64,000 bases of DNA, from NCBI GenBank assembly GCA_016935525.1, contig JAFGQU010000022.1, forward strand, positions 12,471 to 76,470. The letters run 5' to 3'. A program made the translations under genes and the position numbers. The notes beneath the pieces are model-generated. The model saw only the letters and a program-made list of their open reading frames with translations. It was not told where the DNA came from and did no database searches. Shown piece after piece: positions 26,277-43,032 of this stretch; position 1 is the first letter of the stretch, and each line of letters opens with the position of its first letter. Source of the stretch: Candidatus Omnitrophota bacterium. GTDB taxonomy: Bacteria; Omnitrophota; Gorgyraeia; Duberdicusellales; 4484-171.

Positions 26277-26305
26277 CGTATCTCTCCTCTTTTTTTATCC
26301 CATTT

Positions 26306-26338: not shown

Positions 26339-26352
26339 AGAATGGCGTTTTA

Positions 26353-27702: not shown

Positions 27703-27723
27703 AATGTACCTCCCTTATTTAAA

Positions 27724-28521
27724 TTAAAATGCATACGCAAAACTTATCCCGGTATAAAAGCGTTCCGGTTGATTCCCGTCGTTGGCATCTTTTAGATCAT
27801 CTAAAGGTATCGAATAGTTGATCGACGGCGTCATGGTTAACGTGTCGGTCAGAGGTAACGTCAATGCAAGAGAAAGACCGATATCATACCCACTTGTTCC
27901 GGCAATAAAGAGTTTTCGGTTATATCCGAAATGAGAGCCGAAATCAAGCGATATGCCGGTATCTTCGTGAAGCAGGAGACTGTAAGCCATATCCAGCGAA
28001 AAATAACTTCCCAATCCTCCGCCATGGTTCTGGTCGCCGTAATCACGATAATAGGTAAGTGAGGTTTCTACCGGCCAGTCCAGTCCCGGTATTTTGCTCA
28101 ATCCTAATCCGACATAAAATTCACGGCTATACAGGTTTGCCGCGGGAAAATCATAGTACGTATGCCCTACCGATACGCTCAAGAGATCGTTGATCGCTTT
28201 GGTATAATCGATCACATAATCGATCTCGTCCGATTGCCCCCCCTGATTATTGTCGGTATCCCAACTGCTCCAGAAACTGAAGGTGAACCCATAGGCGCTG
28301 ATGTGTATCCCTGGCTGGATGACCGGGTCCCGGTCAAGTAAAAAACCTCTCCAGACATAATCCGAATAGAAATCAAGCGTTCCGGAAATATCAACGTCGA
28401 TATGTAACTCGTCAAGGATACCCGCGCCATACACACTTTTCCCTAAAGGAAAAAGCATGCCGGTAATAAGCAGTACCCCTAAAGTTACGTGCCGTACGGT
28501 TATTAAAAGTGATTTTACCAT
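27724..28521 (-). CDS. Outer-membrane beta-barrel (porin-like) protein, co-operonic with amt
   Basis: Signal peptide MVKSLLITVRHVTLGVLLITGMLFPLGKSVYGAG. Alternating aromatic beta-strand pattern. C-terminal ...ISFAYAF. Start set at the internal Met with RBS AAAGGGGA. The ORF-track extension is likely untranslated. Confidence 0.6.
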   Translation of the reverse strand: MVKSLLITVRHVTLGVLLITGMLFPLGKSVYGAGILDELHIDVDISGTLDFYSDYVWRGFLLDRDPVIQPGIHISAYGFTFSFWSSWDTDNNQGGQSDEIDYVIDYTKAINDLLSVSVGHTYYDFPAANLYSREFYVGLGLSKIPGLDWPVETSLTYYRDYGDQNHGGGLGSYFSLDMAYSLLLHEDTGISLDFGSHFGYNRKLFIAGTSGYDIGLSLALTLPLTDTLTMTPSINYSIPLDDLKDANDGNQPERFYTGISFAYAF

Positions 28522-28571
28522 CGTGTGTCCCCTTTCGTTAAGGCGTTTGTTTGTATATCGGACCATTTTTT

Positions 28572-28630
28572 CAAAAAAAAACGTTTCACTGCACCCCACC
28601 CGGTGTAATGAAACGTCTTTGTTTTTTTAC
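28572..28630. terminator. Bidirectional rho-independent terminator (after the sigma-factor gene, in the leader of the porin-amt operon)
   Basis: AAAAAAAAACGTTTCA...(20-nt loop)...TGAAACGTCTTTGTTTTTTT. A-run on one side and T-run on the other. A second hairpin CACAGTAAA-caatcgtta-TTTACTGTG sits at 28643-28669. Confidence 0.6.
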
Positions 28631-28676
28631 CACTTTGTATACACAGTAAACAATCGTTATTTACTGTGCGTTCAAC

Positions 28677-28709
28677 TATACAAGTAACTGATTACCCGCT
28701 TTGGTAACC
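28677..28709 (-). promoter_or_regulatory. Conserved 33-nt motif (copy 2): TATACAAGTAA-N12-TTACC-N6-GGTAACC, upstream of the porin-amt-glnK operon
   Basis: tatacaagtaactgattacccgctttggtaacc, with perfect palindrome TTACC-cgcttt-GGTAA. Matches the copy upstream of glnN. Confidence 0.35.
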
Positions 28710-28710
28710 G

Positions 28711-29244
28711 TTAACTCAATAAAAGTTCGTGAGCTATATACGCGTACTTATGTTTGATCTTTTTGCCCGTCTTTACTACCATTACATGAGAGATTCCCAG
28801 AGTTTCTCCGATTTCCCGGGTAGTAAATCCGTCTAACTGCATCATAAAGATGTTCCGTTCCCGTACAGTAAGTACAGGCGTGATCTCGCCTAACAGCAGA
28901 TGAGCGTCGATCCAATGAACGGGAAATCCGTCATTCCTGTCCGGTATTTTCTTGTTCAGCGAGTCATGCCCGGTATGTTCAGATTCGGCATCCAGGCTTA
29001 ATGAGACCTTATCCAGAGATCTATACGTTTTCCGAATATAGTTTTTCAGAAAATAATAGCAGTTTTGCAAAATATAACTGTCGGTCTTATTGTTCCAGAA
29101 CCCGGTCATGTTTTGTTCCCAAAGGTGGGTAGAAGCTTCCTGATAGAGATCCTGTTCGTCAAAATAGGTATACCGATTATTGAGTTTATGCGTGATTGCT
29201 TTTAATTTAGGATTCAGTTTGACTATTAATTCTTCGAACTTCAT
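28711..29244 (-). CDS. Sigma-70 family (ECF-like) RNA polymerase sigma factor
   Basis: C-terminal region-4 HTH LTVRERNIFMMQLDGFTTREIGETLGISHVMVVKTGKKI. N-terminal region-2-like segment. RBS AAGGAGG. Confidence 0.55.
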   Translation of the reverse strand: MKFEELIVKLNPKLKAITHKLNNRYTYFDEQDLYQEASTHLWEQNMTGFWNNKTDSYILQNCYYFLKNYIRKTYRSLDKVSLSLDAESEHTGHDSLNKKIPDRNDGFPVHWIDAHLLLGEITPVLTVRERNIFMMQLDGFTTREIGETLGISHVMVVKTGKKIKHKYAYIAHELLLS

Positions 29245-29333
29245 AGGTACCTCCTTAAAAAATAAAAACCCTCATCAAGCTGTCATCGCTTAATGAGGGC
29301 GTCGTTGCCGCTTTTGGAGTTTTCCGGGGCCGT

Positions 29334-29364
29334 AAAAAAGAAAAACCCCAAATTACTTTGGGGC
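29334..29364 (-). terminator. Rho-independent terminator after 29432..30541
   Basis: Minus strand: CCCCAAA-gtaa-TTTGGGG followed by TTTTTCTTTTTT. Confidence 0.65.
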
Positions 29365-29431
29365 ATCTTTGCCTAAACCCGTTTCTACCTACATTGTAGA
29401 AACTATTCTTGTATTAAAGATACCATTAATC

Positions 29432-30541
29432 TCAGGACATGTCAAGTATTTTTTCGGCAATCGCCAGCGCCGCCGTAAGTCCCGGCGATTCAATACCGAT
29501 AAGGTTAATAAACCCGGGAAAACCCTGGTCCGACTCTTCTTTTATCACAAAATCCCTGAAATCCTCGTGTTCAGCCTGTAATTTGGGCCTGATCCCGGCA
29601 GTATCACCGATAAGCTCCGCTATGGTCACCTCCGGCAGGAACTTCTTTATTTCCTCGTAAAACCGCTGTTTTTGGCCGATATCGACGGTATAATCGATTT
29701 CCCGGCAATAATAGGAATCCGGCCCTACCCGCAATCCTCCGGCCATATCGGGAGTAATATGGATACCCAGTGAAACACCTGTCGCCGGCGGATAAATAAG
29801 ACGAGCTATTGAATATTTTTGCGGATTACCAAGACGGAAATATTGCCCTTTACAATAGTGGATCTTGTAATGATTTCGTTCAATATCTATCCCTGCTAAA
29901 GAAGCTATGTTATCGCTGTGAAGGCCGCCGCAATTTATGATTTTTTCTGCCTGGAAAGCGAATTCTGTTCCTTGCGGCTCTTTTACAGTCACGGTATAAC
30001 CGGAAGACTCTTTCCGGATACGGACCACTTCGGTAGAAAATGAAAATACGACACCACGATCGAGCGCGGTTTGATAAAGAAACTGCATGTATGAATGAGA
30101 ATCGATGATCCCCGATTCCGGCGAAAATAACGCGGTGCGGGCATTCACATCCGGCGCATACGAGGAGATTTCTTTTCTACTAAGATACCGTAACGTGGTG
30201 ATCCCGCACTGGATGACATTTTGGAAAATATCTTCGATTTTCGCTTCTTCGGCCCGGTCGGCGGCAATGATGAGTTTACCGGTTTTCCGGTAAGGGATAC
30301 GGTTCTTTTTACACAATTGGTAAAGAAGTTCTTTACCGCGGACGCAGCAAGTAAGTTTCAGCGACCCCGGACGATAATATAACCCGGCATGGATGACCTC
30401 CGAATTACGCGAACTGGTTTCCTGACCGAAAGAAGCGTTTTCCTCAATAACCACTATAGAGGTATTTTCTTCAGCTAGTTTCGCAGCACAACTTAACCCG
30501 ATAATACCCGCTCCGATAATGACAGTATCGACTTTTTCCAT
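29432..30541 (-). CDS. lhgO: FAD-dependent oxidoreductase, L-2-hydroxyglutarate oxidase/dehydrogenase (LhgO) family
   Basis: N-terminal TVIIGAGIIGLS dinucleotide fold. SEVIHAGLYYRPGSLK and GQYFRL motifs, collinear with E. coli LhgO. Confidence 0.75.
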   Translation of the reverse strand: MEKVDTVIIGAGIIGLSCAAKLAEENTSIVVIEENASFGQETSSRNSEVIHAGLYYRPGSLKLTCCVRGKELLYQLCKKNRIPYRKTGKLIIAADRAEEAKIEDIFQNVIQCGITTLRYLSRKEISSYAPDVNARTALFSPESGIIDSHSYMQFLYQTALDRGVVFSFSTEVVRIRKESSGYTVTVKEPQGTEFAFQAEKIINCGGLHSDNIASLAGIDIERNHYKIHYCKGQYFRLGNPQKYSIARLIYPPATGVSLGIHITPDMAGGLRVGPDSYYCREIDYTVDIGQKQRFYEEIKKFLPEVTIAELIGDTAGIRPKLQAEHEDFRDFVIKEESDQGFPGFINLIGIESPGLTAALAIAEKILDMS

Positions 30542-30569
30542 GACGGTTTATTATATCAAAGCAATCGTA

Positions 30570-30610
30570 TAAAAAAACGCCTCTTCCGGTAAAAGAAGAG
30601 GCGTTTTTTG
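30570..30610 (-). terminator. Rho-independent terminator after 30632..32272 (bidirectional-capable)
   Basis: AAAAAAACGCCTCTTC-cggtaaaa-GAAGAGGCGTTTTTTG. An upstream hairpin AACCGCAC-cac-GTGCGGTT at 30611-30630. Confidence 0.65.
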
Positions 30611-30631
30611 TCAAACCGCACGTGGTGCGGT

Positions 30632-32272
30632 TTATGATTTCAATATTGTTTTGGCGATCTCGTCGTTCTTATCGGCGATAAACGTAATTCCCGTCTCTTT
30701 TGCCGTTTCCCGGTTTGCCGCATAGATATCGTCCCGAGAGATCTCTTTTAACGAGAATTTCCGTGCCCCGGCCATCAATTGTTGCAATCCGGCAGCAAGC
30801 TTATCGGCTAATGTCCAGGCAGCGATAGCTCCGCAGGGAATATTTTTCATCTCATCTTTACCGACTTTTTTCTGGACATCATAATAACCGGCAAAGATCT
30901 CATCGGGAGTCGTCCCGAATTCGGTCACACTCGACGGCAATTTATCCCAGTTCCCGTTGAGTTTCTCTCTTTTTTCGGGACTTACTACCCCTTCGATATT
31001 TGACCCTAAAAATCCCGGAATCATCAGCGACCGGCCCATACAGACCAGTTTGGTAAATGGAGCGCCTAACGCTAACGCTTTAAAGATCTGGTCTTCTCTC
31101 GCCAACCCTCCGGCAAACGCCATGTCCACGACTTTTTCTCCTTTATCGGCAAGAAGTTTTGCGTATTCATAGGCTTTAGAGTGTAACACTACCGATGGGA
31201 CTCCCCAACTTTCCATCATGTTCCAAGGGCTCATTCCCGTCCCTCCGCCGGAACCGTCGATAGTGAGCAGGTCGAGTTGAGCCTGAGTTGCGTATTTGAT
31301 CGACATGGCTAACGCTTCCATACCGTAAGAACCGGTTTTAAGCGATATGCGTTTATACCCTAATTTCCGCAGGTATTCCACCGATTTCATGAAATTTTCC
31401 CGCACGGAATCACGGGATGCGAGGCTGGTATACCCCAGGCGGCTATGCCGGGCAAAGGAACGGATCGCTTTATGATTGAACGCTTCCTGTACCTCTTTAC
31501 GGGTCGGATCAGGATCGACCACGTATCCTCTTTCTTTAAGAAACAGGGCATAATCGAGGCTGGTCACCTGGATTTCTCCGCCGATATCTTTTGCGCCCTG
31601 GCCCCATTTAAGTTCGATAATGACTTTATCTCCGTATTTCTCAATTACGTATTCGGCGACACCGTTACGGGTATCTTCGACATTAAGCTGGACGATAATC
31701 GCGCCGTAACCGTCGTGATATTTCAAAAATATGTCGATACGACGGTCGAGTTCCGGAGCTTTAATGATCTTCCCTTTTTTGATTTCTGAGGATTTATCGA
31801 CACCGACCACGTTTTCTCCGATTACAATCGGATATCCTACCAATGCCGCGCCGATTGCGAATGAATCCCAATATTTCGCGGCAATAAATGTCGATCCTAG
31901 TGCTCCGGTCATCACCGGTACCCGAAACTTGGTTTTCATCTTCGCTCCGAATTCTCCTCCAAGATGTACATTAGGGAAAATACAATCGTCTTCTGATTCG
32001 GTCAGCCCTTTGGGCAGGCCTTTTGCGCCATAATTGTATCCGTCAATACGTAAAGAATTATAAGAAACGCCTACGTGACTGGTATTAGAACTTCCGGCCG
32101 TAACGGTTCCGAAATCACGCGGGTAAAGGACTTTTCTTCCCTGTAAACTGGATAACCAGGTTTCGCATTTACCTTTACAATCGGCACGGCAAAGAGTACA
32201 AAGACCTGATTCCGCCGGATTGCCCCGGTTGATCGTCCCAAGGGCGTCATTACTTTTGGGCCATTGAATCAT
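30632..32272 (-). CDS. Glutamate synthase-related FMN-binding domain protein (archaeal-type GltB subunit-2-like, stand-alone)
   Basis: 546 aa. N-terminal Cys cluster CTLCRADCKGKCE. FMN/Fe-S glutamate-synthase central-domain pattern (GSGGGTGMSP..., LVCMGRSL). Confidence 0.7.
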   Translation of the reverse strand: MIQWPKSNDALGTINRGNPAESGLCTLCRADCKGKCETWLSSLQGRKVLYPRDFGTVTAGSSNTSHVGVSYNSLRIDGYNYGAKGLPKGLTESEDDCIFPNVHLGGEFGAKMKTKFRVPVMTGALGSTFIAAKYWDSFAIGAALVGYPIVIGENVVGVDKSSEIKKGKIIKAPELDRRIDIFLKYHDGYGAIIVQLNVEDTRNGVAEYVIEKYGDKVIIELKWGQGAKDIGGEIQVTSLDYALFLKERGYVVDPDPTRKEVQEAFNHKAIRSFARHSRLGYTSLASRDSVRENFMKSVEYLRKLGYKRISLKTGSYGMEALAMSIKYATQAQLDLLTIDGSGGGTGMSPWNMMESWGVPSVVLHSKAYEYAKLLADKGEKVVDMAFAGGLAREDQIFKALALGAPFTKLVCMGRSLMIPGFLGSNIEGVVSPEKREKLNGNWDKLPSSVTEFGTTPDEIFAGYYDVQKKVGKDEMKNIPCGAIAAWTLADKLAAGLQQLMAGARKFSLKEISRDDIYAANRETAKETGITFIADKNDEIAKTILKS

Positions 32273-32327
32273 AACAACCTCCTCTTCTTGTATGGGTAAT
32301 AATTATGCGTATTTTGCCTGTATTTCA

Positions 32328-32377
32328 GGCATCCGTAAAAAATAAAAAACGTCCTTCCTCCTGAAAGAAAGGACGTC
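32328..32377 (-). terminator. Rho-independent terminator after the gltD/nfnB-like gene and its 3' repeat array
   Basis: ACGTCCTT-cctcctgaaaga-AAGGACGT with a long A-run on the + strand (U-run on the transcript). Confidence 0.55.
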
Positions 32378-32461
32378 GTTGTCCTATTGATTTACTATAT
32401 CAATATCGTTTATGCTGTCAAGGGGATTATTAAACAGCGGATAGCGTAGAGCGATTAGCGG

Positions 32462-32600
32462 ACAGATGGAAAATCCCGATCAAATCCAAAGCGCTAAATT
32501 CAAAAAAGGTATTCGCTTTCCCCATTAGGATTTCGGATTTAGAATTTTGGATTTTTAAGCCTGTGACGTGTGACCTTATGTCTATGTGACCTATTTCTTC
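32462..32600. repeat. Composite repeat element: AAATCC x2-3, GGATTT x3, TGTGAC x3 (3' of gltD/nfnB-like gene)
   Basis: aaatcccgatcaaatccaaagcgctaaattc...ggatttcggatttagaattttggattttt, then tgtgacgtgtgaccttatgtctatgtgacc. Its reverse complement has the same module order as 36793..37052. Confidence 0.8.
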
Positions 32601-34003
32601 AGATATTCAAGGATAGCTCGAGCCGCTTTCTTTGCCATACCCATCGCTTCGATGACCGTGCCTTCGCCACCGACGATATCTCCTCCGGCATACACCCCCG
32701 GAATCGATGTCTGCATACTGTCCGGGTCGACCGTAATATCACCGTGGGTATCGGTAGATAATTCCGGAGTGACCCGTAACAGGACTTGATTGGCTTTTAG
32801 GCCTACGGCCAGAATCGCTCCTTCACAGGGTATTTCAAACTCACTGCCGGCGATGGCCAGGGGCCGACGTCTTCCTGATGAATCTGGTACACCCAATTCG
32901 CACCGTTGACAGATCGCTTTTTCAATATACCCTTGGCTCCCTTTGAATGCGACCGGTTGCGTGAGGAATTCGAACTGGATGCCTTCTTCACGGGCATGAT
33001 GGATCTCAAGCCGGCGTGCCGGCATTTCTATTTCGGTACGGCGATAAAGGATCTTTACTGACGGAGCATACCCGGCAATGGATTGTAACCGTAATGCGAC
33101 TCTTGCCGCATCCATAGCGGTATTGCCTCCGCCGATTACGACCATCTGTTTTCCTATATTTACCGGAGTCGCGTAGTGAGGGAATTTGTAGGCATTCATA
33201 AGGTTCACCCGGGTAAGGAATTCATTTGCCGAATACACATTACAGAGATTTTCACCGGGGATACCTAAAAATGTCGGAACACCGGCCCCTAATCCTAAAA
33301 AGATCGCCGAATACCCTTCATCCCACAGGTCGGGAATAGTTTTAATTTGACCGATGATGGAATCAGTGATGATCTCTACTCCCAGTTTTTTTATATACTC
33401 TATCTCTACGTCAAGTATGTCGACCGGCAGACGAAACGGCGGTATCCCGTAACACAATACCCCGCCGGCACGGTGAAGACTTTCAAATACAGTCACCTGT
33501 ACTCCCTGGCGGGCTAATTCTCCGGCACAACATAATCCGGCAGGGCCGGAACCGACTACGGCGACTTTACATCTCTTTAGATGTTCTTGTTGCCGGATGG
33601 GGACATCTATGGTGTTTTTTATTCCGTAATCTCCGAGGAACCGTTCCAAAAAATGGATATTGATCGCGTTCTTTGACGCAAACGGTTCTCCTTTTTTTGT
33701 GAGTACGCACGCCCGGCGACATTGATATTCAGCCGGGCATACCCGGCCGCAGATAGACGGGAAATTGTTTTTTTGACGGATAGTCAAATACGCCTGAGCA
33801 TACTCTTTACGGGTAATCTGGAATATGAATTTTTTAATATCGATTCCTACCGGGCACCCTTCGCTACAGGTGGGGTTTTTACATTGAAGACAACGGGCGG
33901 CTTCAGCTAAAGCTTCTTCTTCGGTGTAGAGGCCGACTACTTCGTTGAAATCTTTTATCCGTTGCTGAGGGGCAATCTCTTGTGGGTGTATAGTTTCTTT
34001 CAT
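32591..34003 (-). CDS. GltD-family NADPH-dependent oxidoreductase (NfnB / SudA / 'homotetrameric GltA'-like)
   Basis: Two [4Fe-4S]-type Cys clusters (CLQCKNPTCSEGCP, CGRVCPAEYQCRRAC). Two GxGxxG folds (VVGSGPAGL, VVIGGGNTAMD). About 470 aa. Start set at MKETIH (alternative: 34045). Confidence 0.8.
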   Translation of the reverse strand: MKETIHPQEIAPQQRIKDFNEVVGLYTEEEALAEAARCLQCKNPTCSEGCPVGIDIKKFIFQITRKEYAQAYLTIRQKNNFPSICGRVCPAEYQCRRACVLTKKGEPFASKNAINIHFLERFLGDYGIKNTIDVPIRQQEHLKRCKVAVVGSGPAGLCCAGELARQGVQVTVFESLHRAGGVLCYGIPPFRLPVDILDVEIEYIKKLGVEIITDSIIGQIKTIPDLWDEGYSAIFLGLGAGVPTFLGIPGENLCNVYSANEFLTRVNLMNAYKFPHYATPVNIGKQMVVIGGGNTAMDAARVALRLQSIAGYAPSVKILYRRTEIEMPARRLEIHHAREEGIQFEFLTQPVAFKGSQGYIEKAICQRCELGVPDSSGRRRPLAIAGSEFEIPCEGAILAVGLKANQVLLRVTPELSTDTHGDITVDPDSMQTSIPGVYAGGDIVGGEGTVIEAMGMAKKAARAILEYLKK

Positions 34004-34028
34004 ATTACTAATATAAATGTTCAATGTA

Positions 34029-34106
34029 AAATTAGCATTTAGCAATTAGCAATGTGAAATTCGGAAATTCTCTTATTTCTTCCATTGCTAAATGAAAATT
34101 GCTAAT
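34029..34106. repeat. Inverted array of direct repeats (TTAGCA x3, then TGCTAA x2-3) between the nfnA-like and nfnB-like genes
   Basis: aaattagcatttagcaattagcaatg...cattgctaaatgaaaattgctaattg. Confidence 0.75.
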
Positions 34107-34125
34107 TGATCATTGATAATTTTTC

Positions 34126-34998
34126 TTACTCTATACGCTTACCGCTATCCGCTATTCGCTGTAAATTACAGATATGTTTCTCTTTTTTTTCGTACATCTT
34201 ACTGCGCTGGAAGAGTTCGTCCCAATCGACCAAGTGGGCATCGAATTCCGGCCCGTCAATACATGCGAATTTTGTTTCTTTATCTACCGTGACCCGGCAA
34301 CATCCGCACATGCCGGTCGCATCGACCATAAGCGCGTTAAGCGAGACTATAGTCTTGAGTGAATATCTTTCGGTAATCTCGGTGACTTTTTTCATCATCG
34401 CAACCGGCCCGACCGCATAGGCTAGATGGTAAGGAGTATTGTTATGGTTTTTCTCAAGAAGACGAAGAAGGACATCGGTCACCAATCCTTTCTCTCCTGT
34501 GGAGCCGTCATCGGTCGTGGCAAAAAACTCATCGGATAGGCCTTGAAGTTCTTTTCTTAAAATAAACAGGTCTTGACTACGTGCTCCGATAATAGTAGTG
34601 ATCTGATTCCCGATGTGTTTTAAAGCCCGGGTTACCGGATATACCTCGGCAATCCCTACTCCTCCCCCGATAATGAGTATCCTCCCGAATTTCTTGATCT
34701 GGGTAGGGGTCCCTAAAGGGCCGGCAAGGCTGAATACCGTTTCCCCGATACCCAGTTCTCCCAGTTTTCCCGTAGAATATCCGGCGTGTTGAAAAATAAG
34801 AGTGATCGTCCCGGTTTCTTTATCGCTCTCCACTATGGTCAACGGGATCCGTTCGCCGGTCGCGGTGGGAATCACTACTACGAATTGTCCGGGGCGGGCT
34901 TTTTGGGCGATAAGCGGAGCAATGATACGCAATTGAGTGATTCGCAGGGGATCTTTCCGGATGAGTTCTTTTTTATCGATAATCTTCATCAGTATCAA
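34126..34998 (-). CDS. PyrK-like FAD/NAD(P)-binding, [2Fe-2S] electron-transfer subunit (NfnA / SudB-like)
   Basis: FNR-like fold. C-terminal MCGCCRV...C cluster typical of PyrK/NfnA. About 285 aa. Confidence 0.75.
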   Translation of the reverse strand: MILMKIIDKKELIRKDPLRITQLRIIAPLIAQKARPGQFVVVIPTATGERIPLTIVESDKETGTITLIFQHAGYSTGKLGELGIGETVFSLAGPLGTPTQIKKFGRILIIGGGVGIAEVYPVTRALKHIGNQITTIIGARSQDLFILRKELQGLSDEFFATTDDGSTGEKGLVTDVLLRLLEKNHNNTPYHLAYAVGPVAMMKKVTEITERYSLKTIVSLNALMVDATGMCGCCRVTVDKETKFACIDGPEFDAHLVDWDELFQRSKMYEKKEKHICNLQRIADSGKRIE

Positions 34999-35483
34999 AA
35001 CGATGTGGTGAAAAACCTATCCATACCCGACAAAATGCCTTTTGTCGTCAACGTCACAATAATACCGGCGATCATGATGCCGATAATGATTCCGCACAAT
35101 GCTTTCGCAAACCGGAATTTAAGCAGGGCGGCGACCAGGGTCCCGGTCCAGGCTCCGGTCGTAGGGAAAGGTATGGCGACAAACATGACCAGCCCGATAA
35201 ACCCGTAGGTACGGACAAAATCTGATTTTAATTCGATCCGTCGGTTCCACCAGTGGAAAAACCTTCCGGCGAGAGGTACGTTTTGCAATACATCGAACAT
35301 AACCTTATAAAAGAAAAACAGAGGGATTACCGGCAGGATATTACCGAAAATTGACAACCAGTAACTTTCCAGAGTTGAGATCCCTTGCGCTAACGCATAG
35401 GGGATAGCACCTCTCAATTCAAGAATGGGAGACGCCGCGATAAGAATAGTGATAAGTTTAGTTTCCGGGAGCATATTTACCAA
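34995..35483 (-). CDS. Small polytopic membrane protein (COG2426-like, 'small multidrug export'-type), function uncertain
   Basis: 162 aa, 4-5 hydrophobic segments. Overlaps neighbouring genes by a few nt. Confidence 0.4.
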   Translation of the reverse strand: MVNMLPETKLITILIAASPILELRGAIPYALAQGISTLESYWLSIFGNILPVIPLFFFYKVMFDVLQNVPLAGRFFHWWNRRIELKSDFVRTYGFIGLVMFVAIPFPTTGAWTGTLVAALLKFRFAKALCGIIIGIMIAGIIVTLTTKGILSGMDRFFTTSF

Positions 35484-36102
35484 TTAACGGAACAAAAATG
35501 CATCCTCCGGCCGATGTTCTCTCGGACTTTCCGGTAGGAGTCTTCTTTAAGATCGTCAGGGTCTGCTGGAATGATTCTCCTACGGGCATGATCAGGGTGC
35601 CGGGTGAGCTCAACTGTTCGATCAACGGTTGAGGGATAACGGTTGCGGCGGCGGTCACGATGATTTTATCGTAAGGGGAATGTTCCGGCCAGCCTTCGGT
35701 CCCGTCATCGACCTTTAAAGATACATTAAGTTTGAGTGTTTTTAATATCTTTTCGGCTTTTTCAGCCAACTCCGGTATACGTTCGACACTATACACGCTA
35801 CATCCGATTGCCGCTAAAATCGCGGTTTGATAACCGCTGCCGGTGCCGATTTCCAATACCTTGTCAGAAGATCCCAGGTCAAGCAATTCAGTCATAAGCG
35901 CGACGATATAAGGCTGAGATATCGTCTGGTCATATCCGATAGAAAGCGGCCGGTCAGTATAAGCGTCCGGCATAAGGATATCGGGAACAAAATATTCCCG
36001 GGGAACACTCAAAAAAGCATCTACTACTTTTTTATTTTTAATCCCTCTTGATTGGAGTTGTTCTTTTACCATTTGTTGGCGTAGGAGTGTATATCCGGAC
36101 AT
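35458..36102 (-). CDS. pcm: Protein-L-isoaspartate O-methyltransferase
   Basis: VLEIGTGSGYQTAILA SAM-binding motif. ...VPREYFVP... Collinear with Pcm. 214 aa. Confidence 0.85.
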   Translation of the reverse strand: MSGYTLLRQQMVKEQLQSRGIKNKKVVDAFLSVPREYFVPDILMPDAYTDRPLSIGYDQTISQPYIVALMTELLDLGSSDKVLEIGTGSGYQTAILAAIGCSVYSVERIPELAEKAEKILKTLKLNVSLKVDDGTEGWPEHSPYDKIIVTAAATVIPQPLIEQLSSPGTLIMPVGESFQQTLTILKKTPTGKSERTSAGGCIFVPLIGKYAPGN

Positions 36103-36104
36103 AA

Positions 36105-36773
36105 TTACTGGTTCAGTATTGCCAGGAAAAAAAAACGTAAAAAACGGATGGTGTCGATGATCGGCTTGATCTTACTGGAAGAATCTTTATGATAGATACT
36201 CTGGATAGGAATCGACTTGATCCGGATATTATTACGGACGGCTTTAATAAGAAATTCCGAATCGACTTCAAAGTTCTCCGTTTCAATAGGTATTTTTTCC
36301 AGGACTTCCCGTTTTATCAGACGAAATCCGCATTGGGTATCGGGGATATGTTGTTTGATCAAAGCCGAAATCAGCCAGGACATGAACCGGTTGGTGAGCA
36401 CGCGGTCAAACGGCATCCCTTGAGGGTTATTCATCCGGTTACCTAATACGAATTTTTCTCCCTGATGAGCTTGGTATAAAAACCCTTTTACATCGGAAGC
36501 AGCGTGTTGACGGTCGGCATCCATAGTGATCACGTAATCAAACTCTTCGTTATCAAAAAGATACTGGACGGCATTTTTTAAGGATTGGCCTTTTCCCAGA
36601 TTTTCTGAATTACGTAATACGGTTACTCCGGCGGATTGAGCGATCTGAGCCGTCTCATCGGTAGAACCGTCATCAACGACCAGAATAGATAATTCTGTCT
36701 GTTGCAGTTCTTCTAAGACCAGCCCTAAGCTATTCGCTTCGTTATAGGCAGGAATAACAGCCCATACTTTCAT
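36105..36773 (-). CDS. GT2 family glycosyltransferase (polyprenyl-phosphate sugar transferase-like)
   Basis: VIPAYNEANSL...VVDDGSTDETAQIA...DADRQH (DxD). Start set at MKVWAVIPAYNE. Confidence 0.75.
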   Translation of the reverse strand: MKVWAVIPAYNEANSLGLVLEELQQTELSILVVDDGSTDETAQIAQSAGVTVLRNSENLGKGQSLKNAVQYLFDNEEFDYVITMDADRQHAASDVKGFLYQAHQGEKFVLGNRMNNPQGMPFDRVLTNRFMSWLISALIKQHIPDTQCGFRLIKREVLEKIPIETENFEVDSEFLIKAVRNNIRIKSIPIQSIYHKDSSSKIKPIIDTIRFLRFFFLAILNQ

Positions 36774-36792
36774 AATGGATCTTTCCACATTA

Positions 36793-37052
36793 TAGGTCAC
36801 ATGTCACATAGTCCCACGACACACGTTACTTTGACTTTATTCGGATACGGTTAGATTTCAATCACCAATAACCAAGATATATCTTTTAAATCCTAAATTC
36901 TAACCCCTAAATCCTAAACAAATTCGAAATGGGGAAAATCCAAAACAATACCACTGAGACCAAAAATCAAAAATATATCAATATTTTGGGTTTGGGATGT
37001 ATGATTTAGGATTTGCTTAGAGCCTAGGATTTTGGATTTAGGATTTAAACTG
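36793..37052. repeat. Composite repeat element: GTCACA x2-3, AAATCCTAA x3-4, spacer, TTAGGATTT x4
   Basis: ggtcacatgtcacatagtc...taaatcctaaattctaacccctaaatcctaaac...ggaaaatccaaaac...gatttaggatttgcttagagcctaggattttggatttaggattt. Same modules as 32462..32600 in opposite orientation. Confidence 0.8.
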
Positions 37053-37081
37053 TGATTAGTCATTATCTGGTTATTTATTCC

Positions 37082-37924
37082 TCAGTCTGTCCAAAATTCT
37101 CCGAACATATACCATTGAGAAGGATATTTTTTTATGTAGCTTCCCAGTATTCCGGCGCATTCGTCTAACAGTTCGCTTTCAGTCTTTAATCCGTCTCCTT
37201 TCAACGGAGAGATCGCTTTTTCAAAAATCAAACGATAATGATCTCTATTTTCACGGATCATAAACGTCGGGACGATATATGACCGGCTGCGCAGGGCGAA
37301 CCGTACCGGTCCCTTCGGCAATTTGCAGGCATGGTCAAGCAGAGTTACCTTTTCTCCATTACCGAAAAAATCCCGGTCACCTACGATAGCTATTATACCG
37401 CCTTCGGCTAAATAACGAAAACAAGTTTTTACTTCGTCGGTGGAGATGATTTTTACTTTACAGAGATTCCGTTGATGATTAAAAAAACGGTTTACTCTGG
37501 GGTTTTTATGCGGCAAAGCTAATCCGGCAACCGGGTAACCCGACATGCCCATAACCGCGGCACCTAATTCGTAATTGCCCAGATGGGCGCTGTAGATAAT
37601 AATGCTTTTGCCTTCCTGACGTAACCGGTCGACGATCTCCCGGTGCTCTATCTTTACGTATCGGGTTATAAACTTCGGGTTGATCCGGGAAAAACGAAAG
37701 AAATCGACAAGATAATAGGTGAAATTTATGAATATCATGCGTACGTGTGCGGCAAGTTTCTTTTTATCATCGCCGATGACCGGTTTAAGGTTATTGCTGA
37801 TCACGACAAAATCCCGTTTCGCACATAGAAACTGTAGATTCCCTAAAAGATAGGCCAGGAGATACCCTACCCGCCGGGGAAGGATTAATGCGAGGAATCT
37901 CCCTAGAAGAAACAGAAAATACAT
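37082..37924 (-). CDS. Lipid A biosynthesis (Kdo2-lipid IVA) acyltransferase, LpxL/HtrB family
   Basis: SAHLGNYELG (H-x4-E/D acyltransferase motif). About 280 aa. Confidence 0.7.
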   Translation of the reverse strand: MYFLFLLGRFLALILPRRVGYLLAYLLGNLQFLCAKRDFVVISNNLKPVIGDDKKKLAAHVRMIFINFTYYLVDFFRFSRINPKFITRYVKIEHREIVDRLRQEGKSIIIYSAHLGNYELGAAVMGMSGYPVAGLALPHKNPRVNRFFNHQRNLCKVKIISTDEVKTCFRYLAEGGIIAIVGDRDFFGNGEKVTLLDHACKLPKGPVRFALRSRSYIVPTFMIRENRDHYRLIFEKAISPLKGDGLKTESELLDECAGILGSYIKKYPSQWYMFGEFWTD

Positions 37925-37925
37925 A

Positions 37926-39038
37926 TTATAGTTTTTTTTGATTTAAAGTAACATCGGCAATATGCAATGCCGCGTCGCTCAACGCGGTCTGTTTTGCCGA
38001 TTCTTTTAAAACCGATAATTGGCGGGGATTATTGAGCAGCATATTCACCGTAACCGGTATCTGGATGAGATTAGTGATCCGGATGATTGCCTGTCGGTTT
38101 TCAAGGTAACGGACATTACGATCTTCCTGTCCCGGAATAGGATTTACTACTAAGGTGCCGATCCCTTTGGTCAGAGCTTCCGAAATGGTTAATCCCCCGC
38201 CTTTGGTAATCAAGATATCCGAAAAATCCATCAGTTTATTTATAAAATCGACATATCCATACGCAAAGATTTTTTTGCGGAATTTTTTACGGGAAACCCA
38301 TTCATAAAGCTTCTTATTCCGGCCGCAGACGACGATCAATTGAAGCTGCCGTGGCAATTCTTCCATGAGTTTGATGATCTGTTTGATCGGGCCGATTCCT
38401 AACCCTCCGCCCATGATCATTATCGTTTTGGTATCGAATGCAAACCCGAATTCCGCGGCAATCGCTTCGCGAGGATGGTTTTGGCTGAATTGATAAGAAA
38501 TAGGGATGCCTGCCACCTTGATCTTTTCCTGAGGAACCCCTTCTTTTACTAAAATCTGCTTGGCTTCCTGACAGGCTACCGTATAGATGCTGATCTGTGG
38601 ATGGATCCAGAACCGATGAGGATAATAATCGGTTACTACCGCGATCAGGGGGATATCAAGTTTATATTTCTTTTTTATATCGCCGGCGATACGACAGGGA
38701 AATGCCTGAGTAGCCAGAATAGCCCCCGGCTGGTAATCATTTAAAAGTTTGTAAATTTTAGGGATAGCAAATATATTTACGATATTCTGGAGAGGCGAGG
38801 CGGCTTTTACGACCGTCTTACGGTCATATAATGATCCCCAGATAAACGGAGCATGTTTTATCGTGAGCATATAAAAGAAGTCGATACAACGTTCCAGACG
38901 CGGAGTAACATATCCGAACCCGTTAATGTTCTTTATATCTAAAGAAGGTTCACGAAACCGAAACGCTTCTTCAAGGTTTTCGCTTGCTTTTTTATGGCCG
39001 CCATATTGGGAAATGTGTAAAAGCAATAATCGTTTCAT
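37926..39038 (-). CDS. Diacylglycerol glycosyltransferase, UgtP / MGDG-synthase family (GT28)
   Basis: Collinear with B. subtilis UgtP: LLLHISQYGGHKKAS, IMGGGLGIGPIK, ITKGGGLTISEAL, NPIPGQEDRN. Confidence 0.8.
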   Translation of the reverse strand: MKRLLLLHISQYGGHKKASENLEEAFRFREPSLDIKNINGFGYVTPRLERCIDFFYMLTIKHAPFIWGSLYDRKTVVKAASPLQNIVNIFAIPKIYKLLNDYQPGAILATQAFPCRIAGDIKKKYKLDIPLIAVVTDYYPHRFWIHPQISIYTVACQEAKQILVKEGVPQEKIKVAGIPISYQFSQNHPREAIAAEFGFAFDTKTIMIMGGGLGIGPIKQIIKLMEELPRQLQLIVVCGRNKKLYEWVSRKKFRKKIFAYGYVDFINKLMDFSDILITKGGGLTISEALTKGIGTLVVNPIPGQEDRNVRYLENRQAIIRITNLIQIPVTVNMLLNNPRQLSVLKESAKQTALSDAALHIADVTLNQKKL

Positions 39039-39046
39039 GCTGAATC

Positions 39047-40207
39047 CTATCGAGAGAATGCTGAAATAAAAGCGTTCACAACCTGGGGATGAAACTGTAC
39101 TCCGGAATTTTTTTTAATTTCTGCGATCGCCTCATCATGGGTCAAAGCTTTACGGTACGGCCGTTCAGTAGTCATCGCGTCATAGGCATCGGCGACTGAA
39201 ATAACCGCGGCGATCATCGGGATTTTTTTACCGGATAACCCTTGAGGATATCCTTCCCCGTCATAACGTTCATGATGATACTTTACTCCCAGAATCACCT
39301 GATTGAGGTCTTTTATCGGAGAAAGGATGCCTTCTCCTACCAGCGGATGAGTTTTAATCGAAGCCCATTCGGTTTCGTTTAAACTTTCCTGTTTGTTCAG
39401 TATCTGTTCCGGCACGCCGATCTTTCCGATATCATGCAGGAGCGCGGCAATACGCAGATGAGAGGTAAATTCTTCCCAGTTCCGGATCTTTCTCATCTTA
39501 CGCAGTTGGTTGGCGATGACCATCGAATAATCGACGACTCGTTTGGTATGTCCCGAAGTATAGTGGTCTTTCGCTTCAATCGCCTCAGCCAGCGTCGATA
39601 TCGTCTGGACGAAAAGATTCTGATTTTTCTCAAGCTGTATCGTAAGGTCTTCAAACAAACTGGCATTTCGTATTGCCATCGCCACATCCGAAGAAAGGAT
39701 AGAAAGAAACGTGAGTTCGTCGGTCCCGAAAGATTTCTTATCTTTTTTCTCGCCTAACACGAATACTCCGAAAAACTCGTCACGGAAGAATATCGGGATG
39801 GCTATCCTTGCTTTATAGACCTTCAATTGTTGATGCAGTTGTTCTAAAAGCTTCTTTTCTTCGGGCGACTCCAGGATTTTTTTACTTTTCAGACGGGACT
39901 GGATCCGTTCGGTAATAAGAAACAGATTATCGTGGCCGGGAACGTGATAAGTAAGAAAATATTTGATTAAAGGCGACTCCGAAGATATCTTGATCAGTCC
40001 GGAAGGGACTTTTGTCCCTTTTTTGCCCTGACTGATCGTAAGAATATAGGATTTTTTCTGTTGGTCAAAAAGGAATATCCCGGCATGAGATACCTTCAGA
40101 CAACGTAACACGGTGCGGATGATGAGTTTGATCAAGGTGTCGGTACGATGTATCAGGATCATTCGGCGAGCCGCTTTTTCAAGCTCTTTACGATAAGTTA
40201 TTTTCAT
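39047..40207 (-). CDS. GAF-domain HD-GYP phosphodiesterase (c-di-GMP signalling)
   Basis: HD motif (LLHDIGK) and HHERYDGEGYPQGL (HD-GYP signature). N-terminal GAF-like region. Confidence 0.8.
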   Translation of the reverse strand: MKITYRKELEKAARRMILIHRTDTLIKLIIRTVLRCLKVSHAGIFLFDQQKKSYILTISQGKKGTKVPSGLIKISSESPLIKYFLTYHVPGHDNLFLITERIQSRLKSKKILESPEEKKLLEQLHQQLKVYKARIAIPIFFRDEFFGVFVLGEKKDKKSFGTDELTFLSILSSDVAMAIRNASLFEDLTIQLEKNQNLFVQTISTLAEAIEAKDHYTSGHTKRVVDYSMVIANQLRKMRKIRNWEEFTSHLRIAALLHDIGKIGVPEQILNKQESLNETEWASIKTHPLVGEGILSPIKDLNQVILGVKYHHERYDGEGYPQGLSGKKIPMIAAVISVADAYDAMTTERPYRKALTHDEAIAEIKKNSGVQFHPQVVNAFISAFSR

Positions 40208-40275
40208 GAGTTTGTATCAATCGTATTGTCAGCGGAAGGCCTCATCTCCCTTTGAGATCAGTGAGAAAAAACGTA

Positions 40276-40632
40276 TCAATTCATATATTTGCCGATCAAC
40301 GTATCCAGCGATTCCAATTCTATCGGTTTTACCAGATAATCGATCACACCGAATTTTTTTGCCCGTACAATCGATTCTTTATCGTCTTTGGCGGTAATCA
40401 TGATGACTTTTGTATCGTGGGAGGAGTTGCGGATATGTTCTAAGATATAGAAACCGTCTTCCCCGGGCATTTTTACATCCAACAATACTAACTGAGGGTT
40501 CTCGGCATCGAATATCTCCAGTGCCGATTGGGCCTCCGTGGCGGTGAACGCTTTAAATCCTTTACGTTTCAAAAAATTCTTAAAAAATTCAACTACTTCG
40601 ACTTCGTCATCGACAATCAATATTTTACTCAT
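40276..40632 (-). CDS. Single-domain response regulator (CheY-like receiver)
   Basis: ILIVDDE...LLDVKMPGEDGF...KVIMITA with conserved D/D/T/K positions. Confidence 0.85.
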   Translation of the reverse strand: MSKILIVDDEVEVVEFFKNFLKRKGFKAFTATEAQSALEIFDAENPQLVLLDVKMPGEDGFYILEHIRNSSHDTKVIMITAKDDKESIVRAKKFGVIDYLVKPIELESLDTLIGKYMN

Positions 40633-40754
40633 TGCTCCTCCTTAAGTTGCTTCATCGATCAGGTAGAACCCGGTATAATAATGAAATTTATTATACCATA
40701 AAATAATTTTTGGGGTATATTTTCCTTACTGGATAACGGCTAAACGGCTTCCGG

Positions 40755-42002
40755 TTATTCCGACTCGAGGGTAAGTTTGGTTATGATCTCGGCGATGGTA
40801 GGATGCATAAAAACGCTCTTTTTTAAGCTATCGATGGACATTCGGTTGCGTATCGCATAGGCAAAAATACTGATAAGCTCACAGGCCCCCCGGGAAAGAA
40901 GCGTGGCTCCCAAGAGGGCTCCTTTTTCATCTATAAGGATTTTAAGGTAACCTCCATCGTCATGGTATACCGATGATGACGAAAATGGGCGAAAATGGGT
41001 TTTAAGAGCGCGGTACGCTGTTCTTTCCTGTTCTAACTGCTCCTCTTGGATTCCTACCTGGGCCAGTTGAGGAATAGTAAAAACACCTTCCGGAATACCC
41101 ATAACACTGTATTTCTGGCTGTTTCCGGCAATATTTTCTACGCAGATACGGCCCTGATATTCTCCGATATAGGCATACATCTTTTCTGCGGTCACATCGC
41201 CGCAGGCGTAAATATGCGGCAGGTTTGTCTGACAGAATTCATTAGTAAGGACCCTTTGCGACTGATCACGTTGTATCCCGATAGCATCCAGGTTAAGCCC
41301 CTGAGTATGCGGCACTCTGCCTGCGGCAAGCAGGACCATATCATATTCGTTGAAATCATATTGAGCGGCATCGGCCCCGGTATGAATATCGATGCCTTCG
41401 CGGGACATGTACGTTTTTAACCTTTGAACGATTGAACTGTCAAATCCTAAAAGGATCCGTGGTTCTTTTTCTATGACGGTCACCTTCCGGGAAAGAGTAT
41501 GTAAGAGCGAGGCGAATTCCACGCCGATAGCTCCTCCGCCGACAATAAGGAATTTTCCGGGCAGGGTTTTAAACGAAAAAAGAGTTTCGGCAAAGAATAT
41601 CTTTTTATTGTCTACTCCCAGAAAATCTCTGGGATGAGAACCGGTCGCGATAATATAATATTGAGATTGGATCCTTTTTTCTCCGACGGCGATCTCCCGG
41701 TCATTTATAAACCGGGCCGAGCCCCATAAAAATTCCAGCCCTTGGGTGTGAAGGAATTGGAGCGACTTTTTTTTAATGGATCCGACCAGTTTTTCTTTTT
41801 CCTCATAAAGCCGGGCGGGATTTTTTTCGTATCCCCCGTGGTGAAGATACAGTTTGGCGGGGATGCAACCCCGGTTAAGGCAGGTCCCGCCGTATAGAGC
41901 GGGATCTACATCGATCAGGACGGTCTTTTTTTTCTTTTTCAATGCCTGCCGGGCGGCTTCGATCCCTGCGGCTCCGGCTCCGATTATTACGATATCGTAC
42001 AT
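40755..42002 (-). CDS. Class I pyridine nucleotide-disulfide oxidoreductase (dihydrolipoamide dehydrogenase family)
   Basis: IVIIGAGAAG. Redox-active GGTCLNRGCIPAK. C-terminal FMHPTIAEI dimerisation motif. 415 aa, shorter than canonical Lpd. Confidence 0.7.
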   Translation of the reverse strand: MYDIVIIGAGAAGIEAARQALKKKKKTVLIDVDPALYGGTCLNRGCIPAKLYLHHGGYEKNPARLYEEKEKLVGSIKKKSLQFLHTQGLEFLWGSARFINDREIAVGEKRIQSQYYIIATGSHPRDFLGVDNKKIFFAETLFSFKTLPGKFLIVGGGAIGVEFASLLHTLSRKVTVIEKEPRILLGFDSSIVQRLKTYMSREGIDIHTGADAAQYDFNEYDMVLLAAGRVPHTQGLNLDAIGIQRDQSQRVLTNEFCQTNLPHIYACGDVTAEKMYAYIGEYQGRICVENIAGNSQKYSVMGIPEGVFTIPQLAQVGIQEEQLEQERTAYRALKTHFRPFSSSSVYHDDGGYLKILIDEKGALLGATLLSRGACELISIFAYAIRNRMSIDSLKKSVFMHPTIAEIITKLTLESE

Positions 42003-42910: not shown

Positions 42911-42917
42911 CGTTATA

Positions 42918-43032
42918 TTGAAATACGATAGAAATACATAGAAATACGATGGAAATGCAATTGTATTTCGTTCCGTGAAGCGGAACATATTTCACGAACG
43001 TATGTGAGTATATTTCGCGAAGCATATTTCAA
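42918..43032. repeat. Inverted array of direct repeats (GAAATAC x4, central hairpin, GTATTTC x4) between the IDH-family gene and mdh
   Basis: gaaatacgatagaaatacatagaaatacgatggaaatgcaat - tgtatttcgttccgtgaagcggaacatatttcacgaacgtatgtgagtatatttcgcgaagcatatttcaatg. Confidence 0.85.

Follow-up and report, generated by a model that had tools for sequence, protein, structure and literature searches.

Introduction

Rickettsia palindromic elements (RPE), reportedly described by Ogata and colleagues in 2000, are said to be about 100-150 nt long and to occur both in intergenic DNA and in frame within conserved protein genes, to whose products they add a peptide segment. To our knowledge, they have no known transposase, are confined to Rickettsia and are not built of 7-nt units. 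Heptanucleotide repeats, the STRR sequences, were reportedly described in cyanobacteria by Mazel in 1990, and the omega ribbon-helix-helix repressor of pSM19035 binds 7-bp WATCACW heptads in direct and inverted runs. The present study deals with a palindrome made of AAATCC-type heptads, and with the repeat arrays that stand beside it, in a 64-kb stretch of DNA from a Candidatus Omnitrophota bacterium (contig JAFGQU010000022.1); this whole stretch is called the window below.

The heptameric intergenic repeats of Nostoc and Xanthomonas form several unit families per genome, some of them inverted and with no function known, and their units are shared among related taxa (Rehm, 2015, PMC4692102). 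Heptamers are over-represented in bacterial intergenic DNA, and slippage has been proposed as the cause (PMC4692102). Direct repeats of TAACTGA, in 2-6 copies, have been found in Beggiatoaceae, Cyanobacteria and Bacteroidetes, often just upstream of start codons that lack a Shine-Dalgarno sequence and sometimes within open reading frames (ORFs); their transfer mechanism is not known, and protein binding has been proposed for them (MacGregor, 2015, PMC4679880). REP sequences, imperfect palindromes 20-40 nt long and rich in GC, carry a conserved GTAG and depend on recognition of the hairpin (PMC3116915; PMC2817692).

Results

The AAATCC/GGATTT palindrome

Two spacers of the window, loci A and B (Table 1), hold AAATCC and GGATTT heptads together with an array of GTCACA units. 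The AAATCC/GGATTT part is a discrete palindromic element of about 136 nt, and its composite with GTCACA is not the repeating unit. A family signature with 21 specified bases, CTAAATYCTAAACAAATNNNAAAT, for which about one chance hit is expected by our own estimate, was scanned against the metagenome collection and matched at least 120 contigs from sediment, groundwater and lake samples. The family statistics rest on 124 metagenome instances among the matches listed, 117 of them testable for arms. The left boundary, 19 nt before the start of the signature, is sharp, the information content there climbing from about 0 to 1.4-2 bits. A clear right arm was recognized in 62 of the 117 instances, with a modal total length of 135-137 nt, and no clear right arm in 40.

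The left arm consists of about nine heptads AAAT[C/T]C[T/N], broken by a conserved AAAC, and the right arm is its complement. The consensus begins AAATYCT AAATnCT AAnnnCT AAATYCT AAAC AAATYCn AAATnCn ..., continues through a loop into the complement and has the right end ...ATTTGTTTAGRATTTAGnnnTTAGRATTTAGRATTT. The termini are 5'-AAATYCTA...TAGRATTT-3', and the conserved cores are CTAAACAAAT and ATTTGTTTAG; within the heptad, positions 1-2 (AA) and 6 (C) are nearly invariant. No conserved target sequence was found in the flanks of the elements, nor were target-site duplications, the longest direct repeat between the left and right flanks of 54 elements being distributed as in shuffled flank pairs.

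A sequence model of 136 positions built from 22 family members (R1) recognized three copies in the window (Table 1). Copy B has the arms AAATCCTAAATTCTAACCCCTAAATCCTAAACAAATTCGAAAT... on the left and ...ATTTGCTTAGAGCCTAGGATTTTGGATTTAGGATTT on the right; it starts with AAATCCTA at 36888, ends with TAGGATTT at 37046 and carries CTAAACAAAT in its left arm and ATTTGCTTAG, with one mismatch, in its right arm. Copy A, which reads AAATCCAAAATTCTAAATCCGAAATCCTAATGGGGAAA...TTTGGATTTGATCGGGATTT on the - strand, has neither the outer heptads nor the AAAC core and is thus truncated. The third copy begins at the stop codon of the upstream gene.

Exact matches connect these copies with other genomes (L and P numbers are our labels for sampled loci and proteins): 23 nt (TTAGGATTTCGGATTTAGAATTT) of locus A recur in L038 at 617-639, locus B has 17-20-nt matches to elements in L038 and L034, and the 17 nt at window 14489-14505 equal L082 2141-2157. 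Three intergenic foldbacks of AAAT[A/C/T]CT and AG[A/G]ATTT heptads were seen in L038. Among 82 Omnitrophota loci, the element was found only in L038, L034 and L082, so that its distribution inside Omnitrophota is patchy (3 of the 82 loci). A tRNA origin, which a GGTTCGACTCC...CACCA stretch in one L038 element might suggest, was rejected, as ARAGORN found no tRNA in L038, L081, L050, L082 or the window.

Host range and occurrence in phages

The contigs bearing the element range in GC content from 0.28 to 0.65. Hosts were assigned by exact-protein or 90%-identity cluster look-ups, homology to window proteins having matched just four loci. The look-ups returned Omnitrophota (L177), an Acidobacteria metagenome-assembled genome (MAG; L095, same contig), Dehalococcoidia/Chloroflexi (L108), Planctomycetota (L118), Syntrophorhabdaceae (L192), a 'Deltaproteobacteria' MAG (L121) and Candidatus Yanofskybacteria (L142), while the host of L144 is Parcubacteria-like. 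The element occurs in at least six phyla of uncultivated bacteria as well as in tailed phages. In IMG/VR, real elements were present in about 25 of the 50 contigs matched by a 17-mer, several of them with 2-4 copies, and since the element-bearing contigs encode portal, tail-tube and tape-measure proteins, they are true tailed phages. Among cultured phages there was a single marginal partial match, and among plasmids no match. The related phage contigs L251, L222 and L213/L217 contain 3-5 half-length single-arm copies per 7-9 kb, beside tail-tube and structural genes.

At gathering score, Rfam returned nothing but one tRNA in the window, L127, L038, L098, L226 and L251, and nothing relevant at E<=1 in window 32200-37200. 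In the literature, no description of the element was found, its sequence strings appearing only as primers, and no paper connects Omnitrophota or bacteria of the Candidate Phyla Radiation (CPR) with such repeats.

Insertion and position relative to genes

At locus B, the order MGDG synthase, acyltransferase, family-2 glycosyltransferase (GT2) and PCMT is preserved in the two syntenic relatives that are closest, and the gap between acyltransferase and GT2, 307 nt in the window, measures 1 and 14 nt in these relatives. Five relatives with the gltD and Glu_synthase pair have a TTGACA promoter directly after the gltD stop codon, whereas at locus A about 165 nt of arrays separate this stop codon from the conserved promoter. 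A comparable expansion was seen between the DHODB-like gene and gltD, a spacing of 0-30 nt in most of about 75 relatives against 122 nt in the window, where it is filled by a heptad foldback. The nearest relative, L082, in turn carries family copies at other sites, which are compact in the window. Judged from synteny, loci A and B are lineage-specific insertions, the inserts being absent from the syntenic relatives.

Protein-coding copies also have the appearance of insertions. At seven metagenome loci a long ORF contains the left arm, which is read in one and the same frame each time, as xNSKSEILNPKQIQNSKF; the genes concerned include those for aminoacyl-tRNA synthetases, PdxJ, a cysteine desulfurase-like protein, a P-type ATPase and TrmH. 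These in-gene copies are single arms of 63 nt (9 x 7 nt = 21 codons), whereas the copies in the window are intergenic. In the Cu-ATPase of L144 (1-2145) the arm is a clean insertion of 21 residues (63 nt, nine heptads) that is absent from six homologues of 80-86% identity; one of these homologues, P0203, has a different insertion, QIPNPKSQIPNK, which is about 20 residues long and lies elsewhere in the protein. Element-derived peptides are carried by closely related Cu-ATPases of CPR bacteria. The evidence is weaker for P0205 and P0206, in whose variable region similar-looking short peptides, FPNPKAQ and ILNPKSE, were seen. The median distance of an element is 14 nt from the stop codon before it and 18 nt from the start codon after it, and ten upstream ORFs terminate inside the element. 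No transposase is among the 20 window proteins scanned, and no search for a parent insertion sequence was made.

The window has a GC content of 45.6% and carries nearly every gene on its - strand. Its gltD-like protein matched only Candidatus Omnitrophota MAGs, at 64-71% identity. A single Logan contig, identical to window 27534-45107, is the sole other record of the source organism and the only other contig with the acyltransferase of the window, the next homologues being 51-56% identical. With a gltD identity of 67-68% to the window, L038 (a single-cell genome) and L081 (a Black Sea MAG) are as distant as any Omnitrophota sampled; L034 has a gltD identity of 67%.

Modules at loci A, B and C

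Locus B, read on the + strand, has GTCACA at 36796 and 36803 with degenerate GTCCCA and GACACA as far as 36823, an array that stands just upstream of the glycosyltransferase gene and its start codon (36774). TAAATCC-type heptads follow at 36887-36918 (4.6 copies by Tandem Repeats Finder) and, after a spacer, GGATTT at 37009, 37027, 37034 and 37041; the arms of the inverted repeat are 36885-36930 and 37004-37049. On the - strand of locus A, the GTCACA array is followed by four AAATCC/AAATTC heptads (32554-32525) and by TTTGGATTT with GGGATTT at 32490-32470. The hairpin of locus A is weak (z=-1.5 against shuffled sequence). The AGCGnAT-type unit of its third module is found again at 34131-34160 and in L082 at 4922-4951.

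The original prediction that the same modules stand in the same order on opposite strands at the two loci was borne out, since both the clustering of the units and the alignment of the loci lie far above chance. Eight GTCACA pairs within 12 nt were counted where 0.02 would be expected, every one of them at locus A, B or C, and AAATCC pairs numbered six against 0.46 expected, five of them at A and B. The colinear local alignment of A (-) with B (+) scored 46.5, compared with 19.3 +/- 3.2 and a maximum of 31 in shuffles. The predicted copy counts were approximately right, several units being degenerate, and the predicted coordinates for locus A omit the module at 32436-32465. The alignment takes in AAATCCnAAATTCTAAnnCCnAAATCCTAA (26/30 identical) and AATGGGGAAA, the latter occurring twice in the window, once per element and at an equivalent internal position. 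In addition, both loci have the GTCACA array on the same side of the element. As neither AATGGGGAAA, which is not a feature of the wider AAATCC family, nor this arrangement is found in the family at large, a copy relationship within the genome is plausible, and by their sequence A and B may be copies of one another in opposite orientation.

At locus C the arms (9146-9298) comprise seven forward and six reverse G[T/A]CACA hexamers in 7-8-nt units, as had been proposed for both arms at 9146-9300, and the RNA fold of -62.8 kcal/mol is well below shuffled controls (z=-4.6).

GTCACA arrays

GTCACA lies outside the R1 boundaries at both A and B, on one side only and at unequal distances (8 nt from copy A, 80 nt from copy B). 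Elsewhere, arrays of the G[T/A]CACA type were found within 80 nt of the element in 3 of 115 AAATCC elements, against a background of 0.56%. GTCACA arrays without AAATCC were recognized at locus C, in L081, L177 (Omnitrophota) and L133 and in the phage contig L274. An exact 16-mer, AGGTCACAAAGTCACA, is present at locus C and twice in L081, which carries GTCACA/GACACA arrays and has GACACAn x4 (10395-10421) in frame in the inter-domain linker of gltD. From the low rate of adjacency, the position outside the R1 boundaries and the solo arrays it follows that GTCACA does not form the end of the AAATCC element but is a sibling family. This separate, iteron-like G[T/A]CACA family of 7-8-nt units stands beside both copies by happenstance in this genome. 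The idea that GTCACA is a conserved terminal motif around a variable internal foldback was accordingly not upheld, the foldback being the conserved and sharply bounded unit.

In IMG/VR, (GTCACANN)x3 was present in 59 contigs, compared with about 2 expected by chance, and (GWCACAN)x4 in 24 contigs, compared with fewer than 0.01 expected (both expectations are our own estimates). These viral arrays lie mostly outside long ORFs and are heterogeneous, several of them resembling iteron or operator clusters. The GTCACA 16-mer itself was not informative in viral contigs, its 16 hits being around chance level and mostly in coding DNA, with an operator-like case in L264. CRP-like sites were also rejected, as the three loci, as read, show nothing of the form TGTGA-N6-TCACA. 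In L145 an AAATCC element (0-based offset 7246, - strand) is nested exactly between inverted CACAGAGACACAGAG and CTCTGTGTCTCTGTG arrays, a palindrome within a palindrome.

Other heptad arrays and neighbouring features

Tandem Repeats Finder recognized period-7 arrays at loci A and B and at five further loci of the window, and a period-8 GTCACAAA array at locus C. A relaxed scan of the window gave five period-7 arrays against 0.1 in shuffles, with 0-2 for other periods. Of about 140 arrays of three or more copies in 80 Omnitrophota loci, 67 have period 7, as do 475 of about 750 tandem arrays in 170 element-bearing loci (L086-L255). AAATCC and GTCACA are the top two cluster-forming canonical hexamers across the 1.26 Mb sampled, and heptad units are shared exactly between different loci in 15 pairs against 2.2 expected. 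Several of the period-7 arrays in the window are foldbacks, an array followed by its reverse complement, and most of these foldbacks fold well below shuffled controls (z -3 to -9). The 17-mer CCATGGACCATCGACTG at window 10413-10429 recurs in L051.

Besides AAATTCT and AAATCCT, recurrent units of L086-L255 are AAATTAG, AAACTCT, AATAGTC (window 10433-10471) and ACGAGCT (L004), which suggests a shared repertoire of heptad families. Two intergenic CACAGAT/ATCTGTG foldbacks, at 15953-16061 and 56474-56571, have the exact 16-mer ATCAGCGATCATCTGT in common and represent another dispersed family. At 50580-50611, TTACGCG is repeated 4.6 times; the array is self-complementary (ACGCGT palindrome) and lies in an 82-nt spacer before the gene at 49905-50579. 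GCGGAATCCC and GGGATTCCGC motifs were found in three spacers of the window (44115-44210, 48202-48380 and 10258-10330), and in the nearest relative a syntenic spacer (L082 3801-3856) holds a CGCGGAT array with CGGATCAAAACGCG in common with the window. Heptad arrays in coding DNA include a GGACTAT-type array in a DHODB homologue (L051 2822-2852) and AGACCCA in a hisH-like gene (L050 3027-3059).

Table 1. Repeat features and spacers of the window, with scores against the element model R1.
Feature	Position	Strand	Description	R1 match
Locus A spacer	32273-32590		between gltD-like gene and Glu_synthase-domain gene	
Locus B spacer	36775-37081		between lipid-A acyltransferase gene and GT2 gene	
Locus C spacer	9138-9306		between HMGL-like gene and KDPG-aldolase gene	
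Copy A	32470-32554		truncated, diverged	27.9 bits, E=1e-7, positions 15-116
Copy B	36888-37046		159 nt, full length, about 21 extra central nt	55 bits, E=4e-16, positions 1-136, both strands
Third copy	14418-14513		diverged; CCAAAT[TA]C / TTGGAAT heptads	30.6 bits, E=1.6e-8, positions 23-116
Locus A GTCACA x3 array	32562-32590	-	directly after TAG stop (32591-32593) of gltD-like gene	
Locus A third module	32436-32465		four AGCGnAT-type heptads (CGCT-type on - strand)	
Locus B GTCACA array	36796-36826	+	GTCACAtGTCACAtaGTCCCAcGACACAcgt; 80 nt from element	outside match
Locus C foldback	9143-9301		between HMGL-like stop codon (9307) and KDPG-aldolase start codon (9137)	
Heptad foldback	10413-10523	-	GTCCATA then GACTATT arrays as read on - strand; part of the genome-wide heptad phenomenon, but of another unit family than AAATCC	
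ATAGTCA and CTATGGA arrays	10433-10523		period 7	
TTTGGAA array	14468-14501		period 7	
AGCAATT/AATTGCT foldback and AGCGGAT heptads	34004-34160		between DHODB-like and gltD-like genes	
AATTAGC/GCTAATT arrays	34022-34121		period 7	
CTATCCG array	34131-34160		AGCGGAT heptads forming 3' end of DHODB-like gene, encoding a non-conserved C-terminal tail	
GTAACGC array	50580-50611		period 7, intergenic	

Upstream of the Glu_synthase-domain gene (window 32273-32421, - strand) there is a promoter TTGACA-16-TATAGT with a short leader, a terminator-like hairpin (GACAAAGACGTC...GACGTC and a T-run) and a second hairpin (GCTGCCTAATATTTAGGCA), none of which matched Rfam. This architecture is conserved in L013 (11400-11660), L063 (11400-11670), L009 (2285-2510), L069 (10095-10365) and L015 (11405-11630), five relatives in which the leader is 70-90 nt longer than in the window. 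The arrangement may serve a nitrogen-assimilation gene as its attenuator or leader. A terminator scan gave this conserved hairpin (32377-32348), which is outside the arrays, as the sole terminator-like site of locus A, and none in locus C or the arrays of locus B. A nitrogen-assimilation neighbourhood with a GltB-type glutamate synthase of 1509 residues and two P-II genes occupies window 21718-27702.

Discussion

Constraint on the heptads and a proposed explanation

No covariation was found between the arms, 74.1% of cells pairing compared with 75.2% after the 3' partners had been shuffled among sequences, and RNAalifold predicted no consensus pairs. The mismatches G.T and A.C occur equally often and without bias to the sense strand, and sense RNAs are not more stable than antisense RNAs. 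Since the arms do not covary, the palindrome is not kept by base pairing in each copy and each heptad is constrained directly. The 7-nt unit is probably what a protein recognizes, whether a mobilising or a DNA- or RNA-binding one, and the base-paired hairpin is probably not under constraint.

On either strand, the entry arm of the consensus has TAA every 7 nt, and hence in all three frames, while the exit arm has TAG every 7 nt and A/U-rich heptads containing AGGA. An incoming ribosome would then first meet TAA or TAG in all frames and would leave over A/U-rich heptads with AGGA. Such an element could be seated between cistrons in either orientation at little cost, which may explain its persistence in compact genomes and phages. 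The elements would be non-autonomous, horizontally circulating insertion DNA that lands between tightly packed genes, with single arms in frame within genes, and loci A and B would be mosaics of independent short-period modules gathered in insertions specific to this Omnitrophota lineage.

On balance, we consider it probable that the AAATCC/GGATTT palindrome is a non-autonomous insertion element which spreads horizontally and lies among other arrays of heptads. The expectation of dispersed repeat families instead of independent local events agrees with the R1 matches and with the exact matches of 17-23 nt to other genomes. The likeness to miniature mobile elements that had also been proposed is partial: the family is dispersed and insertion-like, but it has no target-site duplications, which had been named as something to look for, no link to a transposase was seen, and it does not conform to the classical type. 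More tentatively, and with somewhat less confidence than doubt, we suggest that the family belongs to an undescribed class in which palindromes of about 136 nt, made of a few 7-nt units, colonise at least six phyla and tailed phages without target-site duplication and place 63-nt arms in frame in housekeeping genes, with sibling families such as G[T/A]CACA perhaps included, the whole being propagated or read by a protein that recognizes single heptads.

Alternative explanations

The first impression given by the two loci is that of one composite miniature mobile element with GTCACA as its conserved terminus and the AAATCC/GGATTT foldback as its variable interior. The same module order on opposite strands, the presence of AATGGGGAAA inside both copies (not a family feature) and the nesting of the L145 element between inverted CACAGAG arrays all agree with it. 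Nevertheless, GTCACA is one-sided, unequally distant (8 and 80 nt) and outside the R1 match, just three of the 115 members elsewhere have such arrays within 80 nt, the elements of L038, L034 and the phages have no GTCACA at all, GTCACA arrays stand solo at locus C and in L081, L177 and L274, and target-site duplications are lacking; the composite is extremely improbable and, for the family, largely refuted. Growth in place, in which STRR-like heptamers arise by polymerase slippage and quasi-palindromes by template switching, so that the likeness between loci is convergence on a few favoured units, could draw on the prevalence of period 7 (67 of about 140 and 475 of about 750 arrays), the many unrelated units, the arrays that come and go at different sites in relatives and the published heptamer excess with its slippage explanation (PMC4692102). 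It is nonetheless an unlikely account of the element, because exact matches of 17-23 nt, which take in the AAAC spacer and variant units in a set order, link genomes at saturated divergence and 15 pairs share units exactly against 2.2 expected, and it leaves unexplained the fixed modal length, the sharp termini and the occurrence of one sequence in hosts of GC 0.28-0.65.

A host cis-regulatory RNA would consist of hairpins between cistrons or in 3' untranslated regions that act as terminators, mRNA stabilisers or attenuators, under selection at the RNA level as proposed for REP. The folding of most foldbacks below shuffled controls (z -3 to -9), the start of arrays at or near upstream stop codons and the location of most between co-directional genes would suit it, whereas the lack of covariation, the absence of a G.U excess over A.C on the sense strand, a sense RNA no more stable than the antisense, the AT-rich stems without a T-run, the terminator scan that was empty at locus C and in the arrays, the frequent one-armed copies (40 of 117) and the lack of any Rfam match do not; relatives, moreover, have compact spacers at these sites and evidently do without the hairpins. 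We regard this explanation as very unlikely. Finally, the heptads may be cooperative binding sites with a cellular or phage function, in an omega-like format, the binder itself possibly being the mobile entity. The strict period of 7 nt, the invariant AA and C and the independent variation of the arms fit such an array, as does the resemblance of phage-contig GTCACA arrays to iteron or operator clusters, and a like proposal was made for the TAACTGA repeats (MacGregor, 2015, PMC4679880). No candidate binder gene is linked to the elements in the window, none having been looked for elsewhere; cultured phages gave one marginal partial match and plasmids none; and tolerated insertions, more than operators set in place, would be expected to occur in frame in housekeeping genes and flush with stop and start codons, as the copies do, so that by this comparison a binding array would be rather unlikely.

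Several points weigh against the preferred reading of a horizontally spreading insertion element. Neither a mobilising gene nor a transposition intermediate nor a strain-level presence/absence polymorphism was seen, and neither a conserved target sequence nor target-site duplications were found. Insertion was inferred from distant synteny and protein alignments, the closest relatives being just 51-56% identical in a neighbouring protein, and the host names rest on MAG bins, which can hold misplaced contigs. Copy A is truncated, with a modest score and a weak fold. Conservation across phyla could instead mean that the heptads are selected for some function in the cell. These genomes are full of period-7 arrays whose units are many and unrelated, and slippage on the spot may have produced part of what stands at loci A, B and C, above all the arrays of GTCACA and AGCGGAT.

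As a rule, small dispersed repeats are restricted to one genus, and the identity of a non-coding element over 20-25 nt across Omnitrophota, Patescibacteria, Chloroflexota, Planctomycetota, Acidobacteriota, Desulfobacterota-like lineages and phages implies frequent DNA traffic among uncultivated bacteria of sediment and groundwater, as well as a mechanism of propagation or recognition that is independent of host background. The family offers a searchable handle on the question of why 7-nt repeats such as STRR, TAACTGA and GGGAATC prevail in bacterial intergenic DNA. The element adds peptide segments to essential proteins in organisms with very small genomes. Such elements also break assemblies and confuse MAG binning and gene calling, and could serve as markers of gene flow.

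Comparison with known systems

Structured RNA families differ from the element in that no curated Rfam model matched it and no helices covary, and intrinsic terminators in that the arrays have no GC-rich stem with a T-run. Classical miniature inverted-repeat transposable elements have target-site duplications, which were not found here; that the termini are inverted follows from the palindromic nature of the element as a whole. As intergenic mosaics of several short repeat types in both orientations, loci A, B and C resemble BIMEs, and a Y1 (RAYT-like) transposase would account for spread that leaves no target-site duplication, but the AT-rich stems, the lack of covariation and the cross-phylum range set the element apart from REP, and no RAYT was seen. 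With the omega heptads the likeness is one of format only, 7-8-nt units in direct and inverted runs with GTCACA one base off ATCACA; unlike them, the arrays have no adjacent ribbon-helix-helix gene or plasmid context that could be seen, and AAATYCT is unrelated in sequence.

The TAACTGA repeats are likewise intergenic heptamers common to several phyla and sometimes found inside ORFs, though their unit is another one, they form a short direct array and not a palindrome of about 136 nt, and presence in phages has not been reported for them. STRR and the heptameric intergenic repeats share with the present arrays the tandem intergenic 7-nt units, the several families per genome, the occurrence of units in more than one related taxon and the inverted arrangement of some arrays. 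The units are different (AAATYCT, G[T/A]CACA, GGACTAT and AGCGGAT compared with CCCCAGT, TTGGTCA, CAACAGT, GGGGATT and GGGAATC), those of STRR1-3 were not found, the host is an Omnitrophota bacterium and not a cyanobacterium, and the AAATCC family has a fixed architecture, length and termini instead of an open-ended array. The RPE are like the element in being dispersed palindromes of compact genomes with in-frame copies in conserved protein genes, those of the element being absent from close homologues; the present family, unlike them, is built of heptads, enters genes as one 63-nt arm and extends over several phyla and their phages.

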